A stretch of DNA of 64,000 nucleotides, from positions 62,001 through 126,000 of the forward strand of contig JBEWZL010000162.1 in the NCBI GenBank assembly GCA_045837725.1, read 5' to 3'. The stretch comes from Vermamoeba vermiformis (lineage: Eukaryota). Position numbers and translations under genes: made by a program. Shown piece after piece: positions 1 to 52,400 of the stretch (position 1 is the first letter of the stretch; each line of letters begins with the position of its first letter). The notes beneath the pieces were generated by a model. That model did no database searches. It was given only the letters and a program-made list of their open reading frames with translations, and was not told the origin of the DNA.

Positions 1-3000
1 AATAAGTTTTTTCTCGTCTTTTTGTGCTTTCGGAACATCTTGAGCATTATTTCTTTGACTTCTTGAATATTCCGTCGATTTCTGCCAACATATTTTTTTT
101 GAGTTGTAACGAATCCGCTAAATAATTCTACTTGATGCTCCATAATTGTCTGTATTCGATCTAAATATGGATTCAATGGCACATAGAATTCTTCAATCAA
201 TTCGATTTTCTCGCAAAACAAGTCTTTCAAAGCCAACAGCATAAAAGCGACATTTTGCATCGCTTGAACGGTTCTGCCTAAATTTTTCCGCCTTTGAGGA
301 CTCACTAACTCTTGTCTAGCTTCTTTTAATAGCCGAGATTGATTCACCGTGTTGAAATTTAGCTGAGCTATTCTTCGTCCAAGTTCCTCTTCTTTCTGTC
401 GGTATTCATGGACTTGCATGCCTTGAACAATAATATTACACGCTTCTTTTAACGACTGTTGTAATGAATCTCGTAGTCGATGCAAGGCTAGGGACGGATA
501 TATAAGAGACCCTAAGAAGGCGATAATGATTCCTATAAAAACAGTTAGATCTCGTTCGTTCGAAACTTTCAGCCTCGTAAGCAACGTACCAAAAATGATC
601 ACCAGCGATCGTGCAATAGCGTAATAAATATCTGCTGAAGTAAAAGGGTATTGCGAGTAAACTACAATCTGATAGGTCAAATTCGCAACAATCCTAAAAA
701 ATGGATTAGCAATCCAAATTTACCATAAAAGGAAATTTGAATGAATAATATTACGTACAATGAATATGGTCTATCATAAGCTGTACTATGTTGCAAATAA
801 GTCGCTGAGAAGTAGAATAGGAAACCGAAAGTATAGACGATGGCAAGTCCTTCAGGATAAACCAGGGACGCTAGGTAGACCGTGAGCTCTCCAAATAAAG
901 CACCAATTACTGATCCTAGAATACGTTCAATCGATCTATAATGAATTTAGTAAATATCCAATAAAAAACTTGTTCGGATTTACCTTTGCCAAGTGGATCC
1001 AACCGACGGCATTAAGACTACTGCGACAGTAAATACCGCCCATACTCCGCGAATGTATCGCGGGTAATCGCTTAACTGTCTATTCACAAAGATCATAATC
1101 ACCGAGACTATGCCGAGTAAGATCGGCAAACGAATGACGTAAGCCATTGAGATCTTGTTGTTAATGAACTGAGGAGCTGTTTTTTTAAGCTGTGCTCGTT
1201 CTTTGGATTTGCTAACGAATATACCTATGCTCAAATCGTTAAATAAAGCTTGCGAAACTCGGATTTGGATTTGGACTTACTTTTTGCGAAATGTACGACG
1301 GTATTGTACAGATCTTTAACAGGTTTAGCGAAAAAATATGCTAGTGTTGATCCATAGCCCCATGAAGAGTCGCTGTGAATTCTCGCGTTCAGTTCGAAAA
1401 TTTTGTGGTCGATCTTGTACAATTTCTCAGGCAAGTTAACCAGACGCCAAATATAGAAGTTAACACGTGATGCTTCTTTTGTAGGAGCCAATTTGATGTT
1501 ACCACCTTCATCCTCGTCTCGTGGCTTCAATGTTTCTTGAAGTTCGAACTTGATCCTGTTGCTAAGTTCGACCAACCTATGCAACAGTTGTTAATTATTT
1601 CCTTTTAAGGAAATTTTGTAAACTTACTTCTGCTGGCTAGCACATGCTTTTTCAGCATTTCCAAGCTCGACATTGACGTGTCTTCGGTTTTGAAAGTCGT
1701 GCAAAAACACCCTCTCGGCGCGGGTCTCAATTACTTTCATTCGCTTTTCAATCTAAAAAAATATTTAATAAGAACATATAAAAGACAAAATGGATTCGTC
1801 GAGGACTATTAAACCCGCGTATCATACCTCTTGGGACATTTCATTGAGTAATGGAATGATGACCCATATTCTGTTTGCAATACGTGTGTCAATCGCACCT
1901 TCGAACATTAAATGCATCGTGAGCATGTGACGCAGTAACATTTCAGTGTTGAGAAGAATGTTGCTTTCAATTTCTCGCAGCTCCGGTGACGCCCAACTAA
2001 ATGACGATAAAAAGTTAGATACCAATAAAGAAATTAACGAAGCTTCGCATAGAACGTAATGGTAATAATAATATGCGTTTTCAATTGAAATGGAATAGCT
2101 ACTTACAGCTCAAGCTTGATCTGATCTCGGATTCGGTTCATTCGTAAAATCTTTCGTCCGACGACTTTGTGCCACTTATCTGATTTGATTTCATATTTAA
2201 TTGCGAGATCTAAATAGAAGAGTTAAATTTCGTTCGCAAATTCGAAACAGATCCAACTTACCTTCAGCTTCTTCGCCAAGTTTACCAGCAGCTTCTTGTA
2301 CTCTAGTGTCAAATATGTTTCTCATCTTCGCCAGCAGTTTGCGCGCCGAGTTGATTGCCTGCGACACTTCGTTGTGCATGCGAACTGTGTACCGTGCTGG
2401 ATACAACATTGAGACCAGCATCGCTAAAATGCCTAGAAATCATTATTAATAATATTATTATTATTCATCGTATTATTATAGATGTGCGAGTCTTAATTGA
2501 AAATGGATCGTAGTAAAATTTGCGGTTTTACGGCACTTACTCGCAAACAACAGGGCAATGAATGCTTGGACGGGAGGAGCCATATAATAGTTGTCATAGA
2601 TGCCAGCAGGCAACTCGCTCCTATAGTCGTTGGTGATATCGTAGTACGGCGCATATGAGAACAACAACACCGTGCCCATCATGAAGCCACAGACACGAAT
2701 GACTGGCAGTCCGAGGGCCAATGTCGGGTCATAAAGGCCAATGCAGAAGGCTACTCCAAAGATGGCAATCATATAAACCGCTACAGCTATCCAAACTGAG
2801 TATAACGTAGCGGGAAATAATGCCAAGTTGATGATTAGTGCTAAGATATTGGCGCGTATTTGACTGGACACGAAATTCATCGTTCCGCTCAAAACATTCG
2901 AAAAACAAAGCGCGTAGCCGGCCATAAGCGAAACCCTATCGATAAATTTTCGTATTAACAAGAGAAGGCAGTGTTACTAAGCAGAAATCACGATCTAGGC

Positions 3001-3333
3001 GGGTAAAAAAAATAAAATACGGAATTTCGTTTCCGTGGATCCCGCTAAGGACGAATTTTAACTATAAACGCGCTTAAAAATATAATGATCGTAATATTAC
3101 GAACTTACCATATAGACATGAGAGGTTGAAACACGACAGACATTTCTGGTACAAAAAAGAAAATAGTGCCAATTGTAATTCCAATTGCTGTTCGTAGACT
3201 CGTCATTAAACGAGTTTCAGACAATATTAATTTGCCTAATCTAATTTTTCCACGCTTATAAATCCTATAAATGACATAATTAGCATTATTCCTAGCTTCT
3301 ACGAGAAATAGCCTGCAGATCTTACCTTGTCAT
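1..3333 (-). CDS. Multi-pass membrane protein, FUSC/aromatic acid exporter (ArAE/ALMT-like) family, copy 1; 3' end runs off the window
   Basis: ATG ACA AG|gtaag at 3333. Multi-exon. Contains the FUSC_2-like motif RGVWAVFTVAVVLMPSVGSTWQR-SIERILGSVIGA and two TM clusters separated by helical regions. Colinear paralog at 5259-8657. Confidence 0.75.
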
Positions 3334-4615
3334 CGTGTAAATCGGATTATTGTACAATTGGATACATATGGTAGCGGTAAATAATATATAATCGATTTAG
3401 AAAATATAAAGACGCGATAAAGCGGCATGACGGGATGCAGTTTTCAACCAAATTCCAAAAGAATTTTTCGGAGCGGCCATCAAAGGAAATAATAACCGTT
3501 GATCATGTGAATATTACTAATCACCGCAGAAAATAAAGACTGATTTGGGCGCCGAAAAGTAGCTTTCGATATTTTTGTAAGATTTTTTCTGATCTGCTAC
3601 AAATTGTTAAATAATATTTTATCCGTGTAAAAATACAAAATTATTTGGTTGCATTACTGTAAAAGATTATTACAAACAAGCCAGAATTAGGTAAAATGTG
3701 GCTTAATTAACTGTAGTACCGAACACGCCGTACTCCCTCGTTTGTCGTTTATACAACGTACCATGTTTTAAGTGTTCACATTCATGTAATAACTGATTTT
3801 CGTGCGTTGTTGCATCTTGATCAGGAACAGTTCACAAATAACATTTTGCTCGTGGCGGGCACTTCTCATTCTTGCAAACAACCAAAACTATCAACAATAT
3901 GTAGTACGATGATAGTTCAAGCGAAAGCAACCTATTCCGCCACCGCAGAAGACCGGTCTAATTTGGCGCCCACTGAGATCTGAGATTGAAGTAGGTAATT
4001 TTGCACGAGATGAATTATATAATGACATGCAATCACGTGGCGAATTTATAGCAAAGAAGTAATCAGTTTAGTTTGGAATGATTTAATAATTTTTGCAATC
4101 CGATCCAGGATTTTTCCTTCGAAGCAAATCAAAAATTCAACATTTCCTTGCCGGATCTTACTAATTTAATTTGAATTGGACGAGCGATGGATGACAGTAG
4201 ATTGCGCTGAACCTAATCAAAATATCTTCTCGCTGCGGGCCATAGCCAATCAAACAGACTTCTGAGCAGCGCAAACACGCATATCATTTTGAAAACGTAT
4301 TAATCTCTGCGCCCAAGAAATCTATGCGATGTGCTGTCGACGCAGTAAATATTGCTAGTACTCGATCGTTATTTACGGCGGCTAATAGGCATCATACAGC
4401 AATTAAACACTACCTGCAACAAGCGCATTATCTTAATTAACGCCAAAAACACCAGCTTGTACTCATCAGCATGGTAGGATCCATTTACGACGCACAAATT
4501 ATCTTTTTTTTGTTGAGATATTTCATATTAAGTAAGCTCAAAAATTGAGTTATATTTGTACATTAATGCAAATACTTCCAAACGTTAAAAATATATTGCA
4601 ATACAACGCAGCAGG

Positions 4616-4820
4616 AAAAACATCAACCCCCAAACGGCGAACTACTGAACTTTGTCCGAAGAACCCAGAAGATTCGACCGGGCGAGGAGGGGGCCGAGGA
4701 ACCTCCAGGCGGCGAGGCGATGGGCTGGCCATTCCAAGAGGAGATCTGGGTCAGGACCCTGCTTTATCGGTTTTCACCAAATATTTTACGGCCGCCCGCA
4801 GTTCGGCGACGGTGGCGTTA
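4616..4820 (-). ncRNA. Candidate structured non-coding RNA (~200 nt, family unknown)
   Basis: GC-rich island in an AT-rich intergenic region. The minus strand folds by eye into a long imperfect terminal helix, an internal GACCCAGA/UCUGGGUU helix and a GAAA-capped hairpin, followed by TTTTT. Confidence 0.35.
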
Positions 4821-5258
4821 TTAATAAAATTATATGGGGAAGAAATAAAGAAGAAAATTTGTCGAAAGGAGAGCCAAGGGCCAAATTCAAACAATTAAAT
4901 TGAACGAAATAAAGGAAGGATAGTAGTTTTTGGTATTGTATTCTAGAAGAAGAAATAATAAATTTTGATTTTCCTATTGTAAGCTGAGTTTATTGTTTTG
5001 TGAAATAATAAAGGTTGGTATTTTTGAGAAAATCATCAACAACAACATCACAAAGGTCTGGGATATCTAACATTTGTGGAAGATCCATCTGATGTACAAA
5101 CCTGGTACTGTGAGAAGGGTACATCATAACGGATCTGCAACAAACGTCAGCATGACAGGCCTTCAGTGTCGCAAAAGTATTTGCCAGGGCATCACTATTA
5201 GTTGTCACCTTTAACTCTGGTGATTTGATGTGCTTGGTACATAATCATTTGCTGTTCG

Positions 5259-8200
5259 CTACTGTATAAAGGGAGAATAATTTAACACCAATATTGTATT
5301 GCTTTCATATGATAAAGCAATCAACATCTCCCAACTGATGAGCAGATCTCGAAGAACAAATAAGTAAGAATGAAACTGGACCATCTGTGGCTGAAATGAA
5401 TAAATGAGTCTCTTCTGTAATAAGTTTTTTCTCGTCTTTTTGTGCTTGCGGAACATCTTGAGCATGATTTCTTTGACTTCTTGAATGTTCCGACGATTTC
5501 TGCCAACATATTTTTTCTGCGTTGTAACAAACTTGCTGAATAACTCTACTTGGTGTTGAACGATCTGCTGTATTTGATTCAAGTATGGGTTCAATGGCAC
5601 GTAGAACTCGTCAATCAACTCAATTTTCTCGCAAAACAAGTCCTTCAAAGCCAACAGCATAAAAGCGACATTTTGCATCGCTTTCACTGTTCTAGCCAAG
5701 TTTTTCCGCCGGCCAAAACCTATTAGTTCTTGTCTAGCTTCTTTTAATAGCCTTAATTGCTCTACCGTGTTGAAATTAAGTTGATCTATTCTTCTCTGAA
5801 GTTCTTCATTCTTTTGCTTGTATTCTCGCACTTGCATGCCTTGCACGATAATACTGCATGCCTCTTTTAACGACTTTTCTAGCGATGCTCGCAAAAAAGT
5901 CAACGACAGTGACGGATATATCAGTGAGCCAAGAAAGGCAATTATAATTCCTATGAATAAAGTGTCAGGAAATTTTCGAATCTGGTCGAAGGTGAATTAA
6001 GCTTACCAAATATGACTACTAATGATCGCGCTATAGCAAAATAAATATCTGCCGATACGAATGGATACTGGGCATAGACGACAGTTTGGTACGTTAAATT
6101 CGCTACGATTCTGATCATTCGGAAATTAGCTAATATTTTCTCAGCATTATTGCTACTTACAATGAATAAGGCCTATCATATGCGGTGCTGTGCTGCAAAT
6201 AAGTTGCCAGGAAATAGTACAAAAATCCGAAAGTGAAGGCAATGGTCAAGCCATCATAAGGAGCCACTGATGCGACATAGACCGTAAATTCGGCAAAAAT
6301 AGCTCCGATGAGCGATCCTATGATACGTTCAAACGATCTAGAAATTGACCAATCAGCGACGAGCAATAAAATCTCGTTGGTATCTCGACGTACCTTTGCC
6401 AAGTTGCTCCAACGGATGGCATTAATACTACAGCAACTGTATATATAGCCCATACTCCTCTAATGTATCGTGGATACTCCGTCAGTTGCCGATTAACGAG
6501 AATAATGACTACGGAGACGATGCCGAGAATGATCGGCAAACGGATCACGTAAGACCACGAAATCTTGTTACGAACGAACTCACGAGATGTTCGCTTTAAC
6601 ATTTCGCGTTCTTTTGATTTTCTAACGAAAAGACCTTTAGAAAACCTTAGTTAGACTTGATTGGATTCGGATGCAGATCTTGACTTACTTCGCAGGAAAT
6701 GTTTCGTAGAATACACCAAGTCTATAAATGGCTTTTGAAAGAAGTACGCCATAGAAGACCAATATTTCCATGAACGATCGCTGCGGATCTTGGTGCTGAG
6801 CTCGGAAATTTTGTGGTCGATCTGGTACAGCTTGTCCGGCAAATTAACCAGGCGCCAAATATAGAAGTTAACACGTGATGCTTCTTTAGTCGGAGCTAAC
6901 TTGATTGCGCCTTCACCCTCGCCACGGGGCTTGAGAGTTTTTTGAAGTTCAAACTTGATCCGATCACCAAGTTCATTCAACCTTTGCAACGTTAGTAATT
7001 ATTTCCTTTTAAGGAAATTTCACGAACTTACTTCTTTTGGCTAGCACATGCTCTTTCAGCGTTTCCGAGCTCAATATCGACATGTCTCTTGTTTTGAAAG
7101 CCATGCAAAAATACCCTTTCAGCGCGTCTCTCGATCACCTTCATTTGCCGCTCAATCTAATTAAAGGACCTAATTAATACTGGCAACGATATTAAAAGTA
7201 TATTATGCCTTACCTCGAAAGACATTTCGTTGAGCAGTGGAAAGATGACCCATATTCTCGTTGCAATACGCGTGTCAATCGCACCTTCGAACACCAAGTG
7301 CATCGTGAGCATATGACGCAGTAACATTTCAGTGTTGAGAAGAATGTTGCTTTCAATCTCTCGCAACTCCGGTGACACCCAACTAAACGATGATAATAGT
7401 AAGATATTTGAAGTATGTGCTAGGTGATCGGATACAAATGACTGGTAACTTACAGTTCCGATTTAATATGATCACGTATCTTATTCATACGGACAATCTT
7501 TCGTCCAACAACTTTGTGCCACTTATCAGATTCTATCTCAAATTTGATCGCCAAATCTACCGCACAGCGTTAGGTCCACCGACCAATTAAGTCTTTGCCT
7601 TGCTTACCTTCAGCTTCTTCGCCGAGTTTTCCAGCTGCCTCTTGTACTCTCGTGTCAAATATTTTCCTCATCGTGGCGAGTAACTTGCGCGAGGCATTTA
7701 TTGCCTGCGAGACCTCGTTGTGCATTTTAACGGTGTATCGCATTGGGTAAAGCATTGATACTACCATACTAATAAGACCTGTAAAATATTAAAGTTAAAC
7801 ACGTAATTTCTACGCTGAATCGATCGATAAATCTCCTTTCATTTAATAATGCCGATAATAGCTCCGTGTGGACATGACTTACTTGCAAATAATAGTACCA
7901 TAAACGCTTGAATAGGTGGAGACATATAGAAGTTATCGTAAATGCCATCCGGCAACTCGCTTCTGAAGTCATTGGTGATGTTGTAGTACGGTAAATATGA
8001 AAATAACAGTGCCGTGCCAATCATAAATCCACAGACGCGTAGCACTGGAAGAATAGGACCTAGTACCGGGTCGTAAAGGCCTATAACAAGTGCTACGAAA
8101 AATATGGCGATCATATAACTCGCTACGGCTATCCAAACTGAGTATAGGGTGACCGGAAATAATGCCAAATTAACTAATAATGTTATTACGTTGGCATGTA

Positions 8201-8657
8201 TTTGACTGGAGATGAAATTCATCGTGCCGACCAGATCGTTCGAAAAGCAAAGAGCGTTGCCAGCCATTAGCGGAACCCTATGAAAGATTCATCGTATTAT
8301 TACAATGATTATAGAACTCGCGTAATTTGAGTAATAAAAATAAGATTTGAAATTTCGGTTTGTTATGGATCCGCAGTAACTTTGCTACCCAATGCACATT
8401 TCTTAAAAATTTCGTGAGTAAACTACTTAATTATGACTTACCAAATAGCCATGAGAGGTTGAAACACGACAGACATTTCTGGTACAAAAAAGAAAATCGA
8501 TCCGATGGTAATTCCAATCGCCGTTCGTAGACTCGTCATTAAACGAGTTTCAGACAATATTAATTTGCCTAATCTAATTTTTCCACGCTTATAAATCCTA
8601 TAAATGACAGTATTGATCAGCTTTGTTCCAGTTAAATTTGCGATCTTACCTTGCCAT
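5259..8657 (-). CDS. FUSC/ArAE-type membrane protein, copy 2 (tandem paralog)
   Basis: ATG GCA AG|gtaag at 8657. Same exon structure as copy 1. First in-frame stop (TAG) is at 5259, but the true 3' end could extend toward ~5180 or 4990. Confidence 0.75.
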
Positions 8658-9082
8658 CGTAACTATCCGTATATAAATAATACAAGTGAATACATATGTT
8701 TGCAATTGTAATAAGTGAATATAACTGCAGGATTTACTCACCGGCCAAAATTCTGTGCGGATTCAGTTTTCAATCAATTTTCAATAAAAATTTCTCGAGT
8801 TAACTAACAAAAGAATAAAAAATTCTTCTCTACGGTTGTAATTTTTTCTGGTTCGAATTAGAGGCGTGGAGTAACAATCCATTTTTACTCGAGTAATCAA
8901 GATCAAATCTACCGAGCTAGAGGCCATCTTCGACTGCTTAAGTTGCTTCTAAGTGCATTCTAGGATATTATATCCTATTTAACGAGAGATTGTTGCACGT
9001 CATTTCATGTACGTAAGAAAATGAAATAAATCGTTTCTTTTGGGCACTTCACACAAGCCAGCCAGTCCGCAAATAAGGTAGT

Positions 9083-13882: not shown

Positions 13883-16487
13883 ATGGGTAATACTGTAAGT
13901 CTTCACCACTTAAACAAGATCGAAGCCCAAGAACGATGGGCTTCAATAATATATATGAAAGTTAATTATTATAGAAATTAATGGTAACATTTAGGGAGGA
14001 AAGCATAAAATATCAGCGGATGTAGAGCACGATGGAAATGTTGTTCTCCCGTGCAATCCCAAATGGACGATCAACGTTGACGGCGAGGTAATAAATTTTA
14101 ATTATAATTTTACAGAATATATTCAGCAATAATTGACCAATTGTAATCATAGAAAGTCTCTTTCTGGAGCCAAGTCGAGAAAACTCTGTCCCAAAAAATT
14201 GAAAACGAAGAACAATTAGTGGTACGTAGTTACATACTTATGCTCGTATTATTACGCTCCTAAATATCTTATTTATAATTTATTGAATACGTAACTTGAA
14301 TTTCCATTTACCTGAGTTCAATTCAGAAAACGCTAGAAACCCTGTATTCGAAGACTTTATACGATGGATTGAAATATTTCTTTAAAAAAGTCGCTAAAGA
14401 GTACGTATCATCTCTACAACCGCAGATCTGACTTCTGAAGACCAAGATCTTCTTTAGCTAACAACACTAATACTGTTTAGCGACGAAAAAGAGCGCTTTT
14501 TCAACCACACATTGCCTGCAATGCAGAAGCTAGTGTTAAAAATGCCGCAATTGGGTAAGTTAAGATTTGACTTTTTGGTTGGATCTGCCCAACGTTGTGG
14601 CAACACGTGTTGATTAAATGAACGAGTATTAATACTTGATTGTTTGCAGTACCTTCTCCTTTACCACTGTTACTTGATGGCGTCAACAAAGAGATCACAT
14701 TGAGGTACGTCAAATTTTCTGCTTAAACAAACCCACACAAAGTTTCAATCGAGCGAATTTATCACTGAATCCGAATTACATCTTGAACGTTTAATTACGA
14801 ACAATTATTTCGTGGTCGGTGAGTTGTGTGATTTTTTCTTCCGTTGACAGGAAGTAGTGTGGCAAGTAGTGACTCGAGCACGAAGCCGCAATGCGTCTCG
14901 GGCACGACCACACTAACAAGAATGCACCGCTTCCCGTCCGATCAGCGAAGTTAAGCTTGTTCAGGCCTTCTTAGTACTGGGGTAGGAGACTACCTGGGAA
15001 TCGGAGGTGTTGTGCTCTTTCTCTTTTTTTGCTTTTTACTGCCCCTTGGCCCGCGACCTTTTTCTCCGTTACGAATTTAAAGAACCAGATCCCACATGTT
15101 TTTTGTAAATCAAGCTTGTTACTGATTTTTGTTGCAGCCAAGAGGCCGTATCGTGCTTAGTGGCAGGAGGGTTTTTCAGCTTGTATCCCGTGCAGCGCTA
15201 TGAAAAACACGAGCACTTCCCATCACTGAACTTCAGAGAGATGTTTTTGCCGTCAATGGATGGCACGTACGGCACACAACAGATCGGAAAACTACGGTGC
15301 TTCTTGAACTACTTTGATCGTGTTACTACCGAAGGTAATCGATTCATCAAATCAATTTCCAAATAAGGAAATGTATTAATTCTTTTTCGTGCCAGTGCCG
15401 ACCGGTCAAATTACTTTCCGTCGTCAAACTTGCAAAGAATACCCTGATTGGTCAAATTCAACCAAGCCAATCAAAAATCTCACCGTTGATGCTAAGAAAG
15501 TCATCGAGGATGCTCACGTAAGTTGTGTATCCGCTTCACTTTTCGAACTAACCAACCACACTAGGGTGCACTTCAAGCCGATTTTGCTAATAAATATGTT
15601 GGCGGTGGCACTCTCGAACGAGTAAGCAATACTTCGCATCTTTTCCTAATTAGGCAAGTAAGCGTTGACAGTCACAACTTAGGGCTGCGTGCAAGAAGAA
15701 ATAAGATTCGCTATTTGTCCTGAATTGACAGCGTCAATGTTGTTCTGCGAAGTGATGGGTCCTAACGACGCTATTATTATGATTGGCGCTGAGCAGTACT
15801 CGACTTATCGCGGATACGGCCAAACATTTACCTTTAATGGAAACCACGTCGAAACTGCTGAACGGTAAAAAATCATTTCGCACTATGAATAGCTTTAGAT
15901 CTGACCCAATTTATTAGCGACGAGAAGAATAGAAGAAAAATTGAAGTGGTCGCAATGGATGGTAATTTTATTACAATATAATTAATGCCAAGCTGAATTT
16001 TCAACTAACAATTTTTTTAGCGCTGGATTTCCGAAGCGTGACGATGAGTCAATATTCAGAGGCCGGTATCAATAGAGAATTGAACAAGGCCTATGTCTCG
16101 TTCATGTCTGAACAGGAGGCCCCTAGCCCAGTCGCCACGGGTAATTGGGGCTGTGGTGTATTTAAAGGAGACGCGCCGTTGAAGGCGATAATACAGCTCA
16201 TCGCGGCATCTCAAGGTACAACAAAAATTCTCGGAATTTTTTTCTTAATTTTGACAATTTGCTATTCAGCTGTGGTTTAATACTTACATTACTAATTTAA
16301 TTGTATAGCTAATCGAGATACGTTGTACTTTTCGTTCAATCGTGAAGATGTCAGTGAACCGCTGATCGAGTTCCATAAGCTCTTGATGGAGAATAAAGTA
16401 ACCGTGGGACAATTATATAGCGCGATATTGAAGGTCGATGGCTACAAAGATTTCTACGCGAGACTGAAAAGCAAATTGGAAAAATAA
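13883..16487 (+). CDS. PARG: Poly(ADP-ribose) glycohydrolase
   Basis: Spliced catalytic loop [29 protein letters not shown] (GGG-x-QEE). Also YSTYRGYG, RELNKAY and VATGNWGCGVFKGD. TAA at 16485-16487. Confidence 0.95.
14900..15018 (+). rRNA. 5S ribosomal RNA gene, inside PARG intron 14705-15137
   Basis: ~119 nt, GGGCACGACC...GTTGTGCTCT, with a closing helix I. Conserved CCCGTCCGATC, GAAGTTAAGC (box A) and TTAGTACTGGGGTAGGAGACTACCTGGGAA (box C region). Confidence 0.95.
15018..15030 (+). terminator. RNA polymerase III oligo-T terminator of the 5S gene
   Basis: TTTCTC followed by T7 at 15024-15030, immediately downstream of the 5S 3' end. Confidence 0.8.
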
Positions 16488-16582
16488 TTTTGTAATTTAA
16501 CGAGAGATCCGGATGAGTAAATAGACGTTGATGATTTTAACAATTGTTCTCATATATAATACATTAGATATTAATATTTTTG

Positions 16583-17244
16583 TTATTCTGAAGGCACTAT
16601 AATATCACCAGCTTCTATTGACCGAATAACTTCGAGCGGATCTAGTCCGTGGACAGTTATTCCAACTATACTTTTAGCGGTGCCTAATATCTCTTTCACT
16701 GTGCCTTGAAATGTTGCAGCCAATGAATTTGGTCGCAGGATTCGTGCGATCTGGTACAGATCCTCCAAAGAAACATTTCCTGTATGAGGCCCTGCATTGT
16801 GCGACCGTTTGCCTTCTTTAATAGCTTTTACTAACAACATTGATGCCGTAGGTATGAGGCTTATAGTCAAATTCCTTCCGGTGACTGTCATTCTGACACA
16901 AATCCGCGTTCTTTGCGGTAAACCAAATTCGTTGCCAACTTTATCTATCTCTTCAACGACTCTTTTAGGCGACTTTAATATTAAATGACCATTGAATTAG
17001 TGTATAATATGCCGCGAAACGAAAAAAAAAGAATAAATTACGAAATAAATCCCAAAAATTCATATTTAATTTTAACAACGACTCACCAGTCCCATCGGAC
17101 CTACAACTGCGGCTAAAGGGCCAGTAACTCCAATTCCAACTTTATGCTTTAAAGTAACTGGCGAGTGTCAAAATTAAATCAACCACTGAACAGTAGGAGA
17201 GAATTACCTTCTCGAGTAGCGTTTGGGTCATACTTGGGTGGCAT
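16583..17244 (-). CDS. RPL12: Divergent cytosolic-type 60S ribosomal protein uL11 (RPL12-like)
   Basis: Three exons: MPPKYDPN..., GPMGLSPKRV, and HTGNVSLEDLYQIARILRPNSLAATFQGTVKEILGTAKS. Confidence 0.85.
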
Positions 17245-29668: not shown

Positions 29669-29861
29669 AAAGACAGTAAAATTGTTGAATTTTAATCAAT
29701 CGCCGTTTTTACCCAACGAGGCGCTTCCTGCGAAGAATTTTAAATCAATAGCCTCTTTTACCAAACGAGGCGCTTCATGTAAAAAAAAACAACAGTAAAC
29801 TTGTTGAATTTTAACTCAATAGCCTCTTTTAGCCAACAAGGAGCTTCATGCGAATAATTTT
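29660..29861. repeat. Imperfect tandem repeat: three ~45-bp cores with alternating long and short linkers
   Basis: Core gaattttaa(n)tcaatagcctcttttaccaaacgaggcgcttc(a/c)tg occurs three times. Linkers alternate taaaa..cagtaaa.ttgtt and cgaa. Confidence 0.85.
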
Positions 29862-41975: not shown

Positions 41976-44900
41976 TTATTTTCTCGTTTTTCTTCGCTTA
42001 TTACTAGCAGAGCTATTTTCAGTCTGCTCGGTTGATTCTACTTGCTCGAACTTTCTTTTTGCATTTCTTGTTGAACGACGAGGTCTGTCGGTCAGTTCTT
42101 GCTCCTCATCAGCTGACTCTTCTTCTTCTGTTGTTATTAATCTGATTATTGTATTGTTGCTCTTCGTAATCCGGTTGAATAATCAATTCTTGATGTGCAT
42201 CAAGTTCTAGCGCATTGCCAACTTCAAACGAGACCGGTTTGAACATTATTCTGTGGAACTCAGTTAAATAATATTAAATAATATTATAGCTGCAAATTTC
42301 AGTCGAAATAATTAGCATTTGCTTTTATGTGTAAATTTCATTGGGTTTTCTTGAGTAGACGGTATTAAAAATTTTAGGTTTGAAAAGATTCAAACGTACC
42401 TGTAGCCCCTTGGTAGCACAATATTTCGTTCGTCATTTGGAGTTGCTAGTGCAAATACAGCAAATCGGTTGTAAAAAGCAGGCGCGCCCGAGAAAGCGAA
42501 CTGTTTTTGGTGGCCATGGTTGAGCACGTCTGCTCAAATCTTCAATCTCTGGTACTCCCTTGTAAATCAAATTGCTATCTTTGTCCAGCAATAATAGTTG
42601 GTCGAATTTGGGATATTCATTATATTTGAACTTAATCGTGCGCCACGTATTTGCTTTTGGATCCGAGTTGAACGCATCCACTTCGTAGAAAATCTCGCTA
42701 TTTTCTTTAATATTCTTCATTTTCTTACGAATGTTTTCCAATTTGGCTGTTTTTGTCGGTATATCAACACGTGACACCTATATAAACAATTGTTAGTCGA
42801 GTCTAGGGCATTTCCTTATTAGGAAAGGCGATTTTAGTGAAATTTACCATGTAATCCTTCGTTTGATTCTGTTCAGTGAAAAAATCGATTCCGTTTCTGG
42901 CCAGTTTCATACGAACTTCAAACAATCGACCTTGGCGGTGATAATATTTTTCCTTTTTTGTCATATGCTTCAAATCTAACGCGCAAAAAAATTAAAAAAA
43001 ATTATGCTATATATGGTAATAAGTTGTTAATTAATTACCAGCGCCTAAAGAATTCTTCAAATAATCTTCGTACTGTACGTCTTCGCGCAAAATTGCAGCA
43101 GCCAATGCATTAGCCAAGTGTTCGTCCCTAATATTGAAATGGTTCTTAGAATTTTCGATTCGTAATGAAACAAAAAGTACTTTTTTGCAGGATCAACGAG
43201 CGGCAAAATTAGTTGGACGACAGCGATCAATCGATCCTTAAAATCGATTATAGGATCACTAGTGTACTTGACATGTATATTCTTCCGCGGAATTACTTCC
43301 AATAACGGGCCACCTGAGCAGAATTGTTAGGCAGTATTTTTTATGTAATTATTTCTAGTTTTCAAAACCTGATCCAGGCCAATTTCTCGTACTTTTTAAT
43401 TAAGGGACGACGTGATTTAATATTTTTCCTAATAATTAATGCGGAAACTTGGTCGGAATTTCGACAAAGAATGTAGTGTTTGAGTTTTTAGTAATTAATG
43501 TACATTTTAATGTATTTTTTGCTGTTTTTTGTCTTTTTTGCTGTGGTATCTCATGTAAATCTCCCAGCCAAGAGCTGCAAAGACCAACAGCATGCCAAAG
43601 AATGTGCGTCCCAATCCTTTTAAATAATTAAATAAAAAGAAAAACTCACCGTTATTTTGCCACTTGTCTCGCTGATTTTCTATCAACAATTCCGCCAACT
43701 CAAGCGCTGTACTTCGACACGCTACAACAACTATAGGATGACTGTTAATTAGTGGTTTAATTAATGAATGGTTTAACATACGTGCAGGAGTGGTAGCATC
43801 GTCTCCGTAATCATCGCCAATCACAGTATTTTTATCATAGTCGATTCCCTAGCATAAAATTAGCGGTTATAGCGTTGGCCCAAATCGTTGAAATTAATTT
43901 CCCGACCGGCCAGATCTTGGTAAGAATTTCAAAATCACCAACCGGGTTTGAATCGGGATAACTAACCAATAGGGTCAAAATGTAATATATTATACTACTA
44001 CCTACCTGCGCCAATAACCATTTGAATCCTTCAACTCTACGTTTGATTTCTTGTTCGACATTTTTGTTACCATGGTGCTGGATTCGACACATATGATGAA
44101 TTAATGAGCATTGAATGGTGTTATTAAATGCTATTCGTTCGGGTAAATCTCTATGGACATCGGCACCCAATTTCACCAGAAGATCCGCCGTCCTGATCTA
44201 AAAGTCAGAAATTGAATTAATGATGCGCATATTAATGAGTGCTTACGAAATATGGTTATTGAGAAGTGCGGCTAGTAACGGGGAATAATGCGTTTGATAA
44301 AAGAATTCTTGGTTGACGTCACATCCAACTTTGGTCAGCCAAATATTCAACGCAATCATTGTAACCTTTTCATTGAATCAGTTTATAAAAAATTTAATTA
44401 ATTCATAATGTTAATACCGAAATAACAGCACTGGCCTAGCGGATTGCCGAAGAGGGAGGGGTTGCCGTTTACGCTCGTTAATTCGCAGAATAATTTTCGC
44501 TCTTCATGCCAATATTTAATCTTGTAAATTAAGGTAAGAAGGAAATATATAAATAACTTATAATTACCTCAGCTAAGTTGCCTTGAAGTATGCCGGCTAC
44601 AAGCAAGAATCGTTTCTTATAATTCTGCGGATCGTTTTCATTCGTGTAAAATGGGGCTAAAAATAATCTATCTTCGCTGGTTAAAGAGGCACCTTTATCG
44701 TCGGCAAAATTATCAGCATGATGACTGATTAGCAACTCAACCTGAATTTTAAAAATTAAATCACTTTTAAAACAAAGTTTTTGATTAGAGACGTACGGCT
44801 TTGGCGTCTCGCTGCTGGGCTGCAATATTTATTAGAGTAATGTGCCGACACCAGCCGATTTTATAATCCCAAGTGTTAGGGTTTGGCTCTAATAGAAATT

Positions 44901-45023
44901 ATTAGAAAAATCAAAGGATCAAGAAGCCGTACTATTTTCAATCAAATATGATTCCAATCCTGCATAATCTCGCTCTTCAATTAGTTTCTTCAAATTTAAC
45001 ACGTGTCGTTCAATTTCGTCCAT
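41976..45023 (-). CDS. Ankyrin-like repeat protein with uncharacterised C-terminal domain, copy A
   Basis: MDEIERHVLNLKKLIEERDYAGL, ankyrin-like DLLVKLGADV, conserved SEIFYE...LLLDK...YKGVPEIEDL...LPKGY. Ends NKRRKTRK*. Confidence 0.75.
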
Positions 45024-45176
45024 TGTGTTGTCCTAAATGAAAAAGATTTGGTTCCGTGAGCCCCAGAAAAAACCCACGTGCTTTCTTTCGGTGAATACGC
45101 TTTTTGGGATTAATTTTTATTAAAACTAAAATTAGTGTTGCGTCTTGTTACGCCTCTGTCATTGATCAAAGCAAGC

Positions 45177-46807
45177 TCAGATCTTTGAAAACAAGATCAA
45201 GGCAACAGTAAGCAATAATGATATTCCACTTAAGGATATTACGGAGCTGCTACTAACAGTCTTTCCCGAAGGAGAAGTGGTCGTAGTCGTTGGAGGACGA
45301 GGACATGTCAGCGTTGAAGTGCACGTGACACTTGGAGACAATGCACGATTGAACTCGAATGTTACTGACAGCGAGTAGTCGTCGACACCAGCACCCGTTA
45401 TTGACGCGTCCGTTGTGTATACGTCGCATTGATCGTTGATTGAGTATGCATTCGATGATGACACGTCAACTTGACACGATGACACTTGTTGATTGAGACA
45501 CGTGGCGTTGATCGGTTGAGCGACGCAAAGTGGCACTGTGTAGAATTGATAGCCAAAAAAGCTGCCAGCTGTCGTCACCAACGTCAAAACCAAACTGTCA
45601 TCAGACACGGCCAGCACATTAGCGAGGACACCAATGTCAGGTGTTGAAATCTTTGCAACAAAAGTCCACGTGTTGTTGCGTCGTTGAACAACGATAGCTC
45701 TGCCAATTGGGGTACTAATTGTGACAGTGCCGCGCTTGCTCGTTTGGTCTGCAGTTTGATAAGGGAACTCCGAAGACCAGTGTGTCCGCGTTAAGTACTG
45801 CAAATGAGTCGTAGCCGAGATTGGGATCAGCGCCAGTAAGGCCGACTTGCGCGGCTGTGATGACTTGAGGTGTTTGCCAGACATTGTTGACCTTCGAAAC
45901 GAACACGAGGACGCCGGGAACAGTGGAGGTTTGGTAGGTGGTGACTGGGTACGAAAAGACAAGGGTGTCAATGCCATTGAAGTATAAGTTGAATGGTTGT
46001 ACGCCGTCAATTGGAGAGTTGAACAAAAAGCTGTCAGTTTGCTTCCACGATCCGTCTTGTTGACGCGAGTAGATAAACACGTATGATGAAGTATTGAGCC
46101 AAATAATGTAGTTGTCGTCTATAACGTACGAATTGAACGGAAATCCACGGAGAGTGATGTTCTCGGCGTACAAATCCAGGACCTTCAGACCAAGTCAAAT
46201 CCGTTTCGTTGAGCATTAATGAATTGAAACTAGAAGTCGAAACATCAAATCGAACTAGCGTATTGTCTGATAGAAGGGCTGGTGCATAATCGGTCGGCTC
46301 GATAGTAGTATTACTAACGACGTTATCGTTCGCATCCAAGTTGAAAAGTGTAACTCCACGAGAATGCCAGCCGCCCATCCATTTGCCATTATTAAGAGCC
46401 GTATATGGGATCGATGTGGTTCCAAAACCAGGGCCGACAGCTACTTTCTTGTATCCTGCAGGGCTTTCTCTGAAAACGAACCAAGCGCCAGATGTGCTGC
46501 TCTCGACATCCGTCAAACCAACCGTCACAATTGTGCCCTTATGAGAGCTAACTGGTATGAAGGTAGAGGTAGACCAGACGAATGTTTCTGAGTTATTAAC
46601 TGGCCGCAAGTGCTGAAAATTAATAAATCAATTAATTTTAAATTAAAACTAATTTATATCAGCGAGAAATATTATTTATTCTATTGCCAGGACACTGTTA
46701 ATGAGAAAAAAACGTATATATCCTGTAAAAAAAAAGCCTACCAGAAGATCCGTTGCTGAAACTACTGCAACGACCAAAACCAAACCAAACACTATTTTCT
46801 TCAACAT
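45177..46807 (-). CDS. Secreted, probably GPI-anchored surface protein with beta-rich (propeller/FG-GAP-like) repeats
   Basis: Signal peptide MLKKIVFGLVLVVAVVSA, one intron, Thr/Ser stalk and hydrophobic C-terminus. Two +1 frameshifts at ~46177 and ~45764. Confidence 0.7.
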
Positions 46808-47087
46808 TCCAATTAAAGTTTGTGTTTGCACGATTGTGCGGCTCAATAAATGCGGTAAGTTGCATTTTGCAACTTTTTTGGTGACAATTTGACACTCTAC
46901 CAGGGCCGAAGAAAAAGCGGGATTGGTTAGCTTCAAAATACGCATGGGCAAGGTTCGTCTAAAAAGCCATGACAATGCCTCTAGTCATGACGCCGATGCC
47001 GTAGCAAAGACAATTAATTGCGCGTAGAAATGTCAGCAATTTGGATCCTCGTTGTTTTGCCGTTGTTACCTTAAAAAGATAGATGGT

Positions 47088-49744
47088 TTATTTTCTCGTT
47101 TTTCTGCGCTTATTGCTCGTAGTTTGCTCTTCATTAGTGGCTACTTGATCAATTGTGCGCTTTGATGTTCTCGCTGAACGACGAGTTCTGCCACTGTCTT
47201 CTGACTCTTCATCTTCATTTAACTCAACATCTTTTTTCTTATTTTCTCCTCGTGTTGAACGACGGCGAGGTCTGTCATCACCTTCAACGTCGTCAAATCG
47301 ATCAGCGTTTTTGCTCTCATTGCTGCTAGTGTTCGGATTGTACATGATTCTGCATCGAATTAATAAATAAACCGTTTTATAAAATTTCCTAATATGGTGT
47401 CTATTTCAATTTAATAAGCATATAATATTTTTGTTATACTGAATTGAGATTATTAATGAGGGATGGATTATTCAAAAACGGACCTGTAACCCTTGGGCAA
47501 GACCAGATGTCGCTCGTCAAATTTGGTCACTTGCGCAAATACGGCAAATCTGGTGAAAAAAGGCAGGATCGCTCTTAAAAGCTGTGGTCATTTCACCAGG
47601 TTTTGACTGTCAGATCCAGCACCAAGTCTTCGATTTCTGGTACACCTTTGTATACCTTGCCATTGTATTTGTCGAGCAATAATATTTTGGTCGTTTTAAC
47701 ATAACTAATGTAATTACGCTCGATTCTGGCCCAATGTTCGTAGTCTTTTGGATCCGTATTCTTAGCTTCAATCTCGTAAAATATCTCGGCTGATTTTGGA
47801 ATAATATTCTTCATTTGCCTTCGTACGCCTTCAATAATGGCCGTTTTTCCCGCTAGTTCTACTCGAGTGAGCTAATTATAAATTTTTTTTTTAAGTGATC
47901 CGTACACCTGATATTGTAAACTACGTTTCTTACTGTGTATCCATGAGCCTCGTTTTGTTCGGTGAAAATATCAACACCGTTGCGAGCTAATTTCAAGCGA
48001 GAAGCAAATGATCGACCTTCGCTAATTGCGTACTTGTGCTTTTTGGTCACATTTTTTAAATCTATTTTACCAACCACCCGTCAGTGCCTATTCGCACTAA
48101 TTTGCAATTGTAATCTACCTACCAGCCCCTAAAGTGTCACGGTAATATCGCTCGAGCGTGTCATTTTGATACAAAATTGCCGCAGCTAGCGCATTGCCCA
48201 AATGTTCGTCCCTAATAACATCATTAATATGAAGTACTGTCGAAATAAAAAATAATGTTTTTAACGTACTTCCTCTCGGGATTAACCAATGGCATTATCA
48301 ATTTAACGAGAGCGAATGTTTTCTCTGGAGTACTGGTGAACACTCCACCCAGCGGAATTACTTCCAATAAAGGTCCTCCTATACATAATATTCGGATTAA
48401 TATAGCACTCAACATTCAACTTCAATCTCGCGGCATTTGCGACGTACCGTGATTCATCCATTTTTCTCGTTGATCACCGTGATTTAGGAGTAATTCGGCT
48501 AATTCGTAAGTTTTACTGCATGCAATAACGACTGCAAAAGCGTTAATTTTTTTCAATTGTCATTACTAAGAAATTATTGTTAGGAAAGATCCGTTACTTA
48601 CGTGACGGAGCATCATCGAAATTGGTATTGTAGTCATCACGAATGGTCGTATTTTTATCAAAATCAATGCCCTAATAGCGGTAAATAATTATTATCGTTG
48701 TTATAAATGGATTACTATTTGAAGAAGGCAAGCTGACTTGTTTCAAAGCCCATTTCAGTCCTTCAATTCTGTTCTTGATATCGTCCTCAGTGAGTCCAAA
48801 AAAGGAATTCATATGCACAAGGTGATGTATTAAAGATCGCTTAGTAGTTGATTGGTATGTAAGCGGGTCACTAATTTCTCGATCCGGATTCGCTCCGAGT
48901 TTGAGCAATAGATCAGCAGTACTAAACAATTTAATAAGCCAAAAATGAAATTTCGTACGAATCTTACGTAATATGACCATTGCATAATGCTGCTTTTAAC
49001 GGCGTGGTCCGGTTAAGTTCCTCGTTAACGTCACATCCAACTTTGTCCACTAAATACTCCACGCAGTCATTATAGCCTTCCAAAACCATTATTAATACAG
49101 TTTAAATAGACTATTAGGCTGTATTTAAATTACCAGCACTGCTTGAATAGATCAGAGGAGTCATAGTTGTGTCACGAGTGAATGCGCTGGCGAATTTGAC
49201 GAGCAGATCTCGTTCTTCGTGCCAATATTTCAACTAATATAATGAGACATTAATTAATTACATGCGAAAAATTTTGAATTTTACGTTTGAGGGCTTACTT
49301 CCGCTAGGCTACCGCGGAAAATACTATATTTAACTAAAAGCTGTCTGTTAAAGGATAGACGATCGTTTTCATCGTTGTAAAACGAAGCCAAATATAGCCT
49401 ATCATCGGTCGTTAACGATATGCCCTTGTCATCGAGAAAGTTGTCGGCAGAATGGTGGATCAGTAACTCGATCTGAAAAAATTAATTAAATTCAATTAAT
49501 TGTAGAAAATAAATCCTTACCGCCCTTGCATCGCGCAATTTTGTAGCAATATTTATTAACGTAATGGCAGTGCACGATCGAAGTTTCTCTTGCCAAGAAT
49601 TCGGATTAGGCCCTTCAAAAGATCTAATTCAGCAAAACACCGCAACGACAATCATTCGTTACTATTGGCAATTAAATATGCCTCCAGGCCAGCGTAATTC
49701 TTTTCTTCGATTAACTTTTGCAAATTTCTTGCGTGTTGCTCCAT
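47088..49744 (-). CDS. Ankyrin-like family, copy B
   Basis: MEQHARNLQKLIEEKNYAGLEAYL. Same exon pattern and motifs as copy A. Ends NKRRKTRK*. Confidence 0.75.
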
Positions 49745-49779
49745 AGAGGATGTGACAAAAATATTAAAGTTTGTTTACA

Positions 49780-52400
49780 ATGAACGAAGCACTACAACAC
49801 GCAAGTAACTTGCAAAAGTTAATAGAAGAAAAGAATTATGCCGGATTAGACGCTTATTTAACGGAGAATAGTTCGTTGGAATCATAAACAGGTGTTAAGA
49901 CTCGATCTAATCAGTATTTTCGATAGGACCAAAGGATATTTTCTTGCATTATTGCCAACACCAAATTAACTTAATTAATATCGCCGTTAAACTTCGAGAT
50001 AGCAACGCTGTAAGAAAACTATTTTCTTTTAATCCTTATTAATTCTAGTAAATTGTTAGATCGAAGTGCTAATTAAGCATGGTGCGAATTCTCTCTTAGA
50101 CGATCGCGGAGAATCGTTAACAAGCGATGATAGAATATTTTTAGCGCAATTTTACAGTGACCAAAATGATCCCGCGGCTTACCACAGGCGCGTATTAATT
50201 AGCCATGCTTTATTGCGAGGCAGTCTTAAAGAAGTAAGTTTCGTATTAATAAATATGCTATTATTCATTAATAACCCGCCTAAAGCTCAGATACTGGCAC
50301 GAAGAACGAGAATACTTGCTAAGCGCCGAAAAACAACAAGTGATGTACATAAGCGGGAACAATTTTTTAGGCTATACATGCTCCGCTGGTAAGTATATCA
50401 ATATAATCTCGAAGATCTTTAATTAATTGATTTTCGGAGGTTACAATGATTGCGTGGAATATTTGGTGACCAAAGTTGGAAGTGACGTTAATGCTCAATT
50501 TTTCTTCAAACAAAGTAACAGCACTCCACTGAAAGCAGCTCTTTGTAATAGTAAAATAGAGTACGTCCCCTCGGGATCCACAAGATATATAAGGTAAAAT
50601 TCTTATAATTACCTTATTTGTAGTACGGCGGAATTATTGGTCAAACTTGGCGCTGACGTTCACTTGGAATTTGACGATCAAGTCCCATCGCGCAATTCTG
50701 TCATCAAGAGATCATTAATACAACACTTGGCGAGAGTACATCCTCTGGGCATCCAAGCCGAGGACGAAATTAAAGGCCGAATTGAAGGTCTGAGATGGGC
50801 GTTAAAAATGGTTCGTATTAATTCCTAAATTTAAACTTACTAGTAATTCCCAGTTACTAAAAGTTTGAGTTTTGCGATATTTTAATAATTTGAAAAATAA
50901 TCTAATTTATTATTTTTATAGGGCTCAGACGATCTTAATACTTCGTTTATTAGCGACGATTACTCATTCGAAGGAACTCATTTTCTTCCTAATGCTCCCG
51001 CACGTGAGTCTCGTCCTTTAAAAATTGATAATACGTAACTAATTTTGTTTTAACCTTGAAGTTGTTCTTGCCTGTTTGAGCAAAGCACCGGAGTTTGTTG
51101 CGTTACTTCTCGAATTTCAGGAAGAACGATGGATTAATCACGGTAAGTCAGAAAAAATATTGCATATTAATGCTTAGTATATACTAATAAAAGTTGCATT
51201 AATTAGGAGGACCGTTATTGGAAGTCATTCCGATGGTACATCATTACAAAATTAGCCAGGAACGACTCACTGCCCTGATAGAATTGATATTGCCGCTTGT
51301 TGATCCTCAAAAAAAGTACGTTTTAAGTCTTCAGTCTAAAAAATAACTAATTCAAACTAACGAATGAATTTCGATAGAGAAGAGCATTTTGGCAATGCAC
51401 TTGCAGCGGCAATTTTGAACGAAGATGAAATGTACGAAGATTATCTACGGAACACTCTTGGAGCTGGTAAGAAATTACTCCATTGGTTATTCGGTGAAAG
51501 GCTAACCAAGCACTAGACTTAACGAATGTCACAAAGAAAGATAAATACTCCCCTCGTCAAGCAAGATTATTCAAGACGCGAATGAAACTCGCAAGAGATG
51601 GCGTCGATTGTTTTATTGAAGACTATGAAGCTAAGGAATACGTTGTAAGTAGCATATACTTTTGTATACTATTTATGGTATTCTAACGCATACTTGCAAA
51701 GCTTGCTCGAGTGGATATACCAACAAAAACGGCTAGCATTGGCAGCATAAGAAAGAAAATGAAAAATATTAAAGGAGATAGCGAGATTTTCTACGAAATG
51801 GATGCGTGGATTACGGATGCAGAGGGCTATAATAATATTTGGAAGCAGTTTAAACATCCGCACTTGGAGTCACTTCGTCCAATAAGCCCGATCTTGCTAT
51901 TGGACAAATCGACCAACAAGATATACAAAGGAGTGCCGCCCATTGAAGATTTGGCGTTGGATAAAACTCACCCTGGTCAAATGATCATACCGTTTGTGCA
52001 TACCGTCGAAACGATTTTTCAAGAAAGATTTGCCGTGTTTGCCCAAGCAATGCAAGAACATGACGACGAGAAGAAAATTTCTTTGCCGAAGGGTTACAGG
52101 TGCGATGGCAATTGTAATAACAATTGACTAACCGCATATTCAGAATTATATTCAAACCTGTGTCTTTTGAAGTTGCAACGAAAGCTATGCAAGAATTTCA
52201 CAACGAGATCAAAGCGCATAATGACATTGCTGAAAAACCGCAAGAAATGAAGCACGAAGATGATCCTGAGGAGGATCAAGCTGGGTGGTGGCAGACCTAG
52301 TCGTCGTGCAGCACGAACAGCGAAGAGAAAGATCGGACTAGTTGACTCCGATAACGACGAACAAAATGCGAGTAACAAGCGCAGAAAAACGAAGAAATAA
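49780..52400 (+). CDS. Ankyrin-like family, copy C
   Basis: MNEALQHASNLQKLIEEKNYAGLDAYL. Same motifs as copies A and B. Ends SNKRRKTKK*. Confidence 0.75.

Follow-up and report, generated by a model that had tools for sequence, protein, structure and literature searches.

Scattered 5S rRNA genes are described for Neurospora crassa, Schizosaccharomyces pombe and Acanthamoeba castellanii (excerpt of PMC1635290). In the 64-kb stretch of DNA analysed here (the window), a 5S gene lies in an intron of a gene for poly(ADP-ribose) glycohydrolase (PARG). Like the 5S genes of those three organisms, its family consists of many single copies with unrelated flanks, relics among them, and no tandem neighbour was found; unlike those families, for which no account of intronic members came up in a literature search, the copies that can be traced here lie in sense in introns, behind an upstream core that is not a TATA box and is complementary to the start of the 5S. 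Introns also house other Pol III genes: in Caenorhabditis elegans, 44% of the tRNA genes are intronic, as chance predicts (excerpt of PMC4999229). The resemblance to these tRNAs lies in the nesting of Pol III genes in spliced Pol II introns, much of which chance explains, and in the possibility that host transcription modulates the nested gene; the differences are that the nested gene here encodes an rRNA and not a tRNA, and that 56% of the worm genes are in sense, against 4/4 copies here, of which one was selected and one is biased (excerpt of PMC4999229). The dicistrons of Yarrowia lipolytica likewise have the 5S near a tRNA, and a TFIIIA-free maturation from a leadered precursor is conceivable for both. 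However, in Yarrowia the tRNA lies 4–7 nt upstream and no terminator intervenes, an arrangement absent from the window and from a second locus, L001, where the tRNA–5S gap is 256 nt and contains a T-run (excerpt of PMC2566860). Haloferax has a tRNA-like 5S leader (cited in the excerpt of PMC2566860), whereas the leader described here folds onto the 5S 5' strand.

A literature search that included few subscription journals returned no published account of intronic 5S genes or of intronic members of dispersed 5S families. As far as that search reaches, the recurrent lodging of dispersed 5S genes in introns and their upstream motif are unreported. Intron-encoded snoRNAs are transcribed in sense from enlarged introns of unrelated hosts, and the 5S copies share this placement; unlike snoRNAs, they gave no C/D or H/ACA match, carry a Pol III terminator and a box A, and their processing from introns is putative. 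The reading we prefer, at a probability of roughly 0.6, is that autonomous Pol III genes (5S and tRNA) lodge and turn over in the introns of a compact genome and that the motif is an upstream promoter element.

The PARG host gene and its sixth intron

The host is, on its sequence, an intact-looking PARG gene with the following features.

13883..16488, + strand: PARG gene, 13 exons, 450 aa (open 13-exon model)
13883-13894, 13995-14087, 14153-14221, 14327-14400, 14481-14554, 14650-14704, 15138-15334, + strand: PARG exons 1-7
15396-15517, 15565-15621, 15683-15864, 15918-15961, 16021-16215, 16309-16488, + strand: PARG exons 8-13
14705..15137, + strand: PARG intron 6, 433 nt, GTACGT...TTGCAG, phase 2
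15122, + strand: candidate branch point CTGAT of intron 6

The exons matched PF20811 (helical) and PF05028 (macro) in profile order; exon 5 corresponded to profile positions 4–27 and exon 7 to positions 47–107, the gap between them equalling the length of exon 6. The catalytic motif of the PARG domain, GGG-x6-QEE, was present. The gene model aligned gap-free to P0128, with 413 of 450 residues identical; this protein comes from 2-kb JGI/Logan contigs and matched solved PARG structures (E 1.6e-87). The closest named homologues were from animals (approximately 40% identity), and the best EukProt match reached 47%. All 12 introns were GT..AG in the gene model, 11 of them 47–105 nt long.

The window was compared with four of the 24 sequencing runs listed: X2 (DNA contigs of another strain, with 8–22 differences per 400 nt), X4 (contigs, presumably of RNA), X5, and X21 (raw RNA reads from a strain approximately 90% alike). 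A 1012-nt X4 contig omitted exactly the 433 nt, from GT to AG, at the intron 6 junction, and 11 of the 12 PARG introns were skipped in X4 contigs; spliced PARG transcripts thus exist in this run, and the transcriptional interference and the release of 5S from the excised intron that the first-pass annotation raised are hypothetical. The raw X21 reads supported downstream PARG junctions and gave none over that of intron 6. The host intron was therefore spliced around the 5S gene with the host frame intact, as in a nested intronic gene. The first-pass annotation, made from the letters of the window, had proposed a junction at 14704/15138 with an in-frame join EITLS/QEAVSC across an intron several times longer than its neighbours: the transcript-type X4 contig makes this junction, P0128 reads EITLSQEAVSC, and the other 11 introns fall far short of 433 nt.

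Misassembly of the 5S insertion is unlikely, and we regard it as very improbable that the assembly joined a collapsed 5S repeat to the PARG intron by mistake. Two X2 contigs run from 14500 (exon 5) through the leader into the 5S gene, to 14917/14918, and another from 15001 (5S end) through the trailer to 15440. They penetrate the 5S by just 18–19 letters on each side, short of the 31 letters of the bridging rule, and none of the pieces listed covers the whole 5S with both flanks. However, contig ends inside the 5S are expected, since a collapsed repeat breaks contigs, and the transcript contig omits exactly 433 nt relative to the window. The X4 junction and the X2 contigs entering both 5S ends uphold the earlier claim of a real, intact 5S gene in a spliced Pol II intron.

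The 12-nt first exon (window 13883-13997) gives PARG the N-terminus MGNTGG (MGNAGG in P0128), which we take to be a possible N-myristoylation signal. A ribosomal protein L11-family gene (window 16500-17000, - strand) converges on the 3' end of PARG, leaving hardly any spacer between the two.

The 5S gene and its dispersed family

The 5S gene and the elements around it are as follows.

14832..14837, + strand: T6 run preceding the leader; the L001 and L002 leaders likewise have T-rich runs shortly before them
14863..14899, + strand: 37-nt leader, consisting of the core CAAGTAGTGAC, a variable middle and TC directly before the 5S
14900..15018, + strand: full-length 5S rRNA gene (RF00001 match), 119/119 identical to the L001 copy
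14949-14963, + strand: 5S box A
14979-14996, + strand: 5S box C
after 15006, + strand: possible cryptic splice donor in the 5S (X4 contig)
15024..15037, + strand: Pol III-type terminator, T7 (15024-15030), GC, T5 (15033-15037)

RF00001 matched over the whole model (1–120), in sense to PARG, with 104.7 bits (gathering threshold 38) and all five helices, and helix I was closed in the minimum free energy (MFE) fold. X5 showed 0 differences over 14897-15020. The T7 run lies six nt past the 5S 3' end. The match at 14900-15018 was unique in the 64-kb window, both at gathering level and at E<=1 in a permissive Rfam scan, so no tandem 5S is present there; ARAGORN found no tRNA in the window. Judged against the consensus excerpted from PMC3369914, which may not fit the host lineage, box A agreed at 6/6 constrained positions, box C at 10/12, and the intermediate element at 1/3 at its canonical place (nt 67–72). 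The two box C deviations, A85 and U92, could pair with each other, and a match to the intermediate element at nt 71–76 is too short to count. There was no TATA at -45..-15 of the 5S. The earlier description of an intact, same-strand gene with paired ends, a T7 terminator and no tandem copy thus holds, as does its box A; its box C agrees with the consensus in part. The T6 run could be an insulating terminator or the relic of an upstream Pol III gene.

Sequencing depth indicated many more copies. The 5S bin in X2 had a depth of 288,213 against 306–1,141 in 27 bins away from it, and the 5S contig of X5 had 314 against 2–8 for the other X5 pieces listed; depths are not copy numbers, and we read the family size as an order of magnitude, approximately 10^2 (roughly a hundred to a few hundred copies). 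The sequence was common to 15–16 X2 contigs back to approximately 14864, upstream of which they differed, and the downstream flanks diverged behind 15036-15038 (20 of 43 loose ends listed). This combination of many copies, unrelated flanks and no local tandem copy defines a dispersed family, beside which a tandem array may exist elsewhere in the genome; the deep 5S coverage, the many distinct flanks and copies at other loci bear out this part of the first-pass annotation.

An exact 26-mer scan of metagenome_contigs returned two loci, L001 and L002; the 5S and leader patterns had no match in viral_contigs or genome_contigs.

L001 388-461, - strand (that of the peptidase host): tRNA-Ile(AAT) in the putative L001 intron, 256 nt upstream of the 5S, with its own T-run
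L002 1226-1369: tandem-duplicated leader (first copy ending after GGGCAC), then a 5S truncated at approximately nt 52

At L001, a 5S identical to the window copy (119/119) and the tRNA-Ile(AAT) lie in sense, 3' of a GTAAGT donor that ends an M24 peptidase exon at profile position 96 of 208; no more M24 match was found before the contig ends, 569 nt on. At L002, a truncated 5S (48/52, then unrelated) lies in sense, 3' of a GTAAGC donor ending a PIP5K exon at profile position 188 of 288; it is, to judge from its letters, a decayed insertion. In neither case was a further exon recognised before the contig ends, and we infer that both copies are intronic.

Searched against proteins, the 5' frame over the 5S had four matches and the frame over its 3' half none among 55 candidates. 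P0126 and P0127 carry the exact 5S; P0124 (labelled dandelion) and P0125 (labelled diatom scaffold) were the 5S of other organisms and were dropped. P0127 starts SND1-like (residues 2–46, E 0.005); at codon 130 its residues are consistent with a GTAAGT donor, and the 5S follows approximately 185 nt further on. These protein letters suggest a third sense-intronic copy, found via a sense read-through frame and hence biased toward sense. P0126 reads first through two tRNA-like stretches that are compatible with a B box, then through a T-run, and last through leader and 5S.

The 5S was thus in sense to its host in 4/4 readable copies (window, L001, L002 and P0127; one selected, one biased). A crude gene model of the window, for which PARG itself was part of the training set and in which 15% overlapped between the two strands, assigned 62% to exons, 26% to introns and 12% to intergenic space. 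Sense-intronic positions then make up approximately 1/3 of the non-exonic space, so that finding both unbiased loci sense-intronic has p ~0.12, and a placement bias is suggestive only.

The leader motif and the presumed transcription of the 5S copies

The core at 14863-14875 is a conserved upstream motif missing from the first-pass annotation. It was invariant in 4/4 DNA leader copies and occurred once without mismatch in the 64-kb window; other leader matches in the window were three at two mismatches, against 1.3 expected. The distance from core to 5S was 37 nt in the window, 38 nt at L002 and 36–37 nt in P0126/P0127, and an X21 loose end also had the motif 36–38 nt before the 5S; L001, with 80 nt, is the exception. 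The most plausible role of the motif is that of a Pol III upstream promoter element. Several other identities for the leader were rejected: it lacks the CUGANGA core of a hammerhead (by eye), across copies it does not fit an A or B box (TRGYnnAnnnG / GWTCRAnnC, by eye, as excerpted from PMC2566860), it matched no Rfam family and no C/D or H/ACA RNA, and the copies have no common fold ending before G1 that would make a tRNA-like tRNase Z substrate.

At 3/3 DNA loci the core complements 5S nt -2..10, always in the same register, and its best partner among the 108 12-mers of the 5S is nt 1–12. With the leader attached, 5S nt 1–6 pair with it (P 0.8–0.9) until the 3' strand appears. These pairings speak for a reading that we hold to be improbable, in which sense introns would be the intended home of the family and the 5S would be intron-encoded and matured from the Pol II pre-mRNA or the excised intron, TFIIIA being partly or wholly dispensable. 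The leader, folded on 5S nt 1–10 as an anti-helix-I hairpin, would mark the 5' cut or time the folding. Its fixed ends and variable middle (37, 38 and 80 nt) are the pattern of a hairpin. The sixth pair alternates: the window and P0126 have G-C there, L002 and an X21 loose end have A-U, and P0127 is compatible with a change making its one mismatch a C-G pair. In L001, however, the sixth pair is broken and the MFE fold shifts with the chosen boundaries. Leader hairpins were no more stable than shuffles (z -0.34, +0.82 and -0.63), the leader–5S duplex compared with shuffles gave p values of 0.19, 0.28 and 0.013, and 8% of random 34-mers paired as well as the window leader. Nor does the leader show a hammerhead core.

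The placement of the copies bears on the same reading, since both DNA loci from the unbiased scan, plus P0127, are in sense and 3' of a donor; the number is tiny, however, the p of ~0.12 comes from a crude null, and P0127 is biased. In another X4 contig, 135 letters of upstream sequence and the 5S as far as 15006 are followed by an unrelated stop-free 30-mer. Such a join would result from a cryptic AG|GT splice into a host exon, or from a truncated 5S copy. Eukaryotes do mature leadered 5S RNAs, as from the Yarrowia tRNA-5S and yeast RPR1-5S transcripts (excerpt of PMC2566860). Against an origin from the intron stand the retained canonical T7 terminator and box A, and the weak expression of PARG (170 reads placed of 13 million, many on the 5S), a poor source for rRNA. 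We would give little credence to the view that most copies are sense-intronic and matured from spliced introns under the guidance of leader pairing with the first ten bases. If true, it would mean that a eukaryotic rRNA is made through snoRNA-like biogenesis, possibly without TFIIIA.

RNA reads on the 5S region came from both strands equally, no transcript start or end peak was assignable to the PARG-intron 5S, and flank-bearing reads ran beyond the leader (median 49 and 76 letters); for these three reasons transcription is not assigned to the PARG copy. Two X21 reads with an A19 tail after 15019 hint that RNA of the 5S sequence ends there.

The PARG copy could also be a silent or weak passenger, recently copied or gene-converted and muted by Pol II traffic while other copies supply the 5S, which we consider rather unlikely, if less so than maturation from the intron. 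Its leader deviates from the family majority at 14874, 14878, 14886 and 14892, a decayed intronic copy exists at L002 (48/52, then unrelated), the visible part of intron 6 in a relative has no 5S, and same-strand intronic tRNAs of C. elegans have lower Pol III occupancy (excerpt of PMC4999229). In contrast, the 5S has the same sequence as a copy at an unrelated locus, although the flanking PARG sequence varies by several percent from strain to strain; both haplotype-like X2 contigs run into the PARG copy, and terminator and box A are intact.

In the relative, intron 6 is seen through P0001 and P0002, called ORFs that extend 261 and 204 nt into it before exon 7; in the window the 5S end lies 119 nt ahead of the acceptor. 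Back-translated and aligned to the 5S over these 204–261 nt, P0001 and P0002 scored 17.6 and 14.7, within the shuffle range, against 82 for P0126 and P0127. P0002 has 10 consecutive residues in common with the second tRNA-like stretch of P0126 (residues 79–88), and its letters allow a complete T-arm with a T-run behind it; P0001 is a further altered version. The last 204–261 nt of the relative's intron thus appear to contain a tRNA-like element and no intact 5S; a 5S may lie nearer the 5' end of that intron. The T-arm element could be the remains of a tRNA or a short repeat derived from one; its 5' part differs between the loci (the P0001/P0002 N-termini and P0126). The first-pass suggestion that 5S genes are mobile in this lineage receives indirect backing from this intron and from the truncated L002 copy.

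Under the preferred reading of autonomous Pol III genes, the 5S would be kept as dispersed single copies, each a cassette of upstream motif, 5S and T-run, and cassettes and tRNA genes would settle wherever tolerated. They would lodge in introns because the tolerated space in a compact, intron-rich genome is largely intron. The PARG-intron copy would act as an autonomous Pol III unit with a box A and a lineage-variant box C, the motif at -37 replacing a TATA-type upstream element, transcription starting after a pyrimidine and stopping at T7, and splicing would remove the 5S together with its intron from the PARG pre-mRNA as waste. Pol III transcription of the PARG copy and turnover of the copies are presumed here: copies would be born, homogenised and lost, leaving different Pol III passengers in the same intron of sister lineages.

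This reading is supported by the mostly fixed motif spacing, the pyrimidine before +1, the box A, the T7 run and the company of tRNAs; the tRNA-Ile with its own T-run in the L001 intron indicates that ordinary Pol III genes occupy the same places. Further support comes from the multi-copy, dispersed family with 119/119 identity to L001 and 0 differences in X5, and from a non-exonic space that is mostly intron in the crude model (26% against 12% intergenic). It is weakened by the sense orientation of 4/4 readable hosts, where chance predicts half, by the unassigned transcript start and end, and by the departure of box C and the intermediate element from consensus. It is also weakened by L001, where the motif lies 43 nt further off from a perfect 5S, which a fixed-distance promoter should not tolerate, and where the core outdoes 99.4% of random 16-mers in pairing with the 5' end of the 5S (a post hoc test).

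At the least, these observations describe a protist in which dispersed 5S genes and tRNA genes reside in, and turn over within, the introns of ordinary genes, a natural test of Pol II and Pol III coexistence on one strand and of 5S copy movement. The invariant motif offers a handle, be it a new type of upstream element for Pol III or a hairpin for processing; the latter would be a new kind of exception to the rule that in eukaryotes the primary transcript of 5S is made by Pol III.

Other features of the window

Repeats were seen elsewhere in the window. Positions 1-8700 hold a tandem gene duplication with a period of approximately 5.4 kb and blocks 72–94% identical, and positions 42500-52400 hold three related gene copies, two direct and one inverted. 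A 52-nt repeat occurs three times at 29686-29857 (77–85% alike). An inverted repeat at 49661-49872 has 78-nt arms, 82% complementary and 56 nt apart; with a weak, sub-threshold match to a miRNA family, it is MITE-like or a hairpin RNA.
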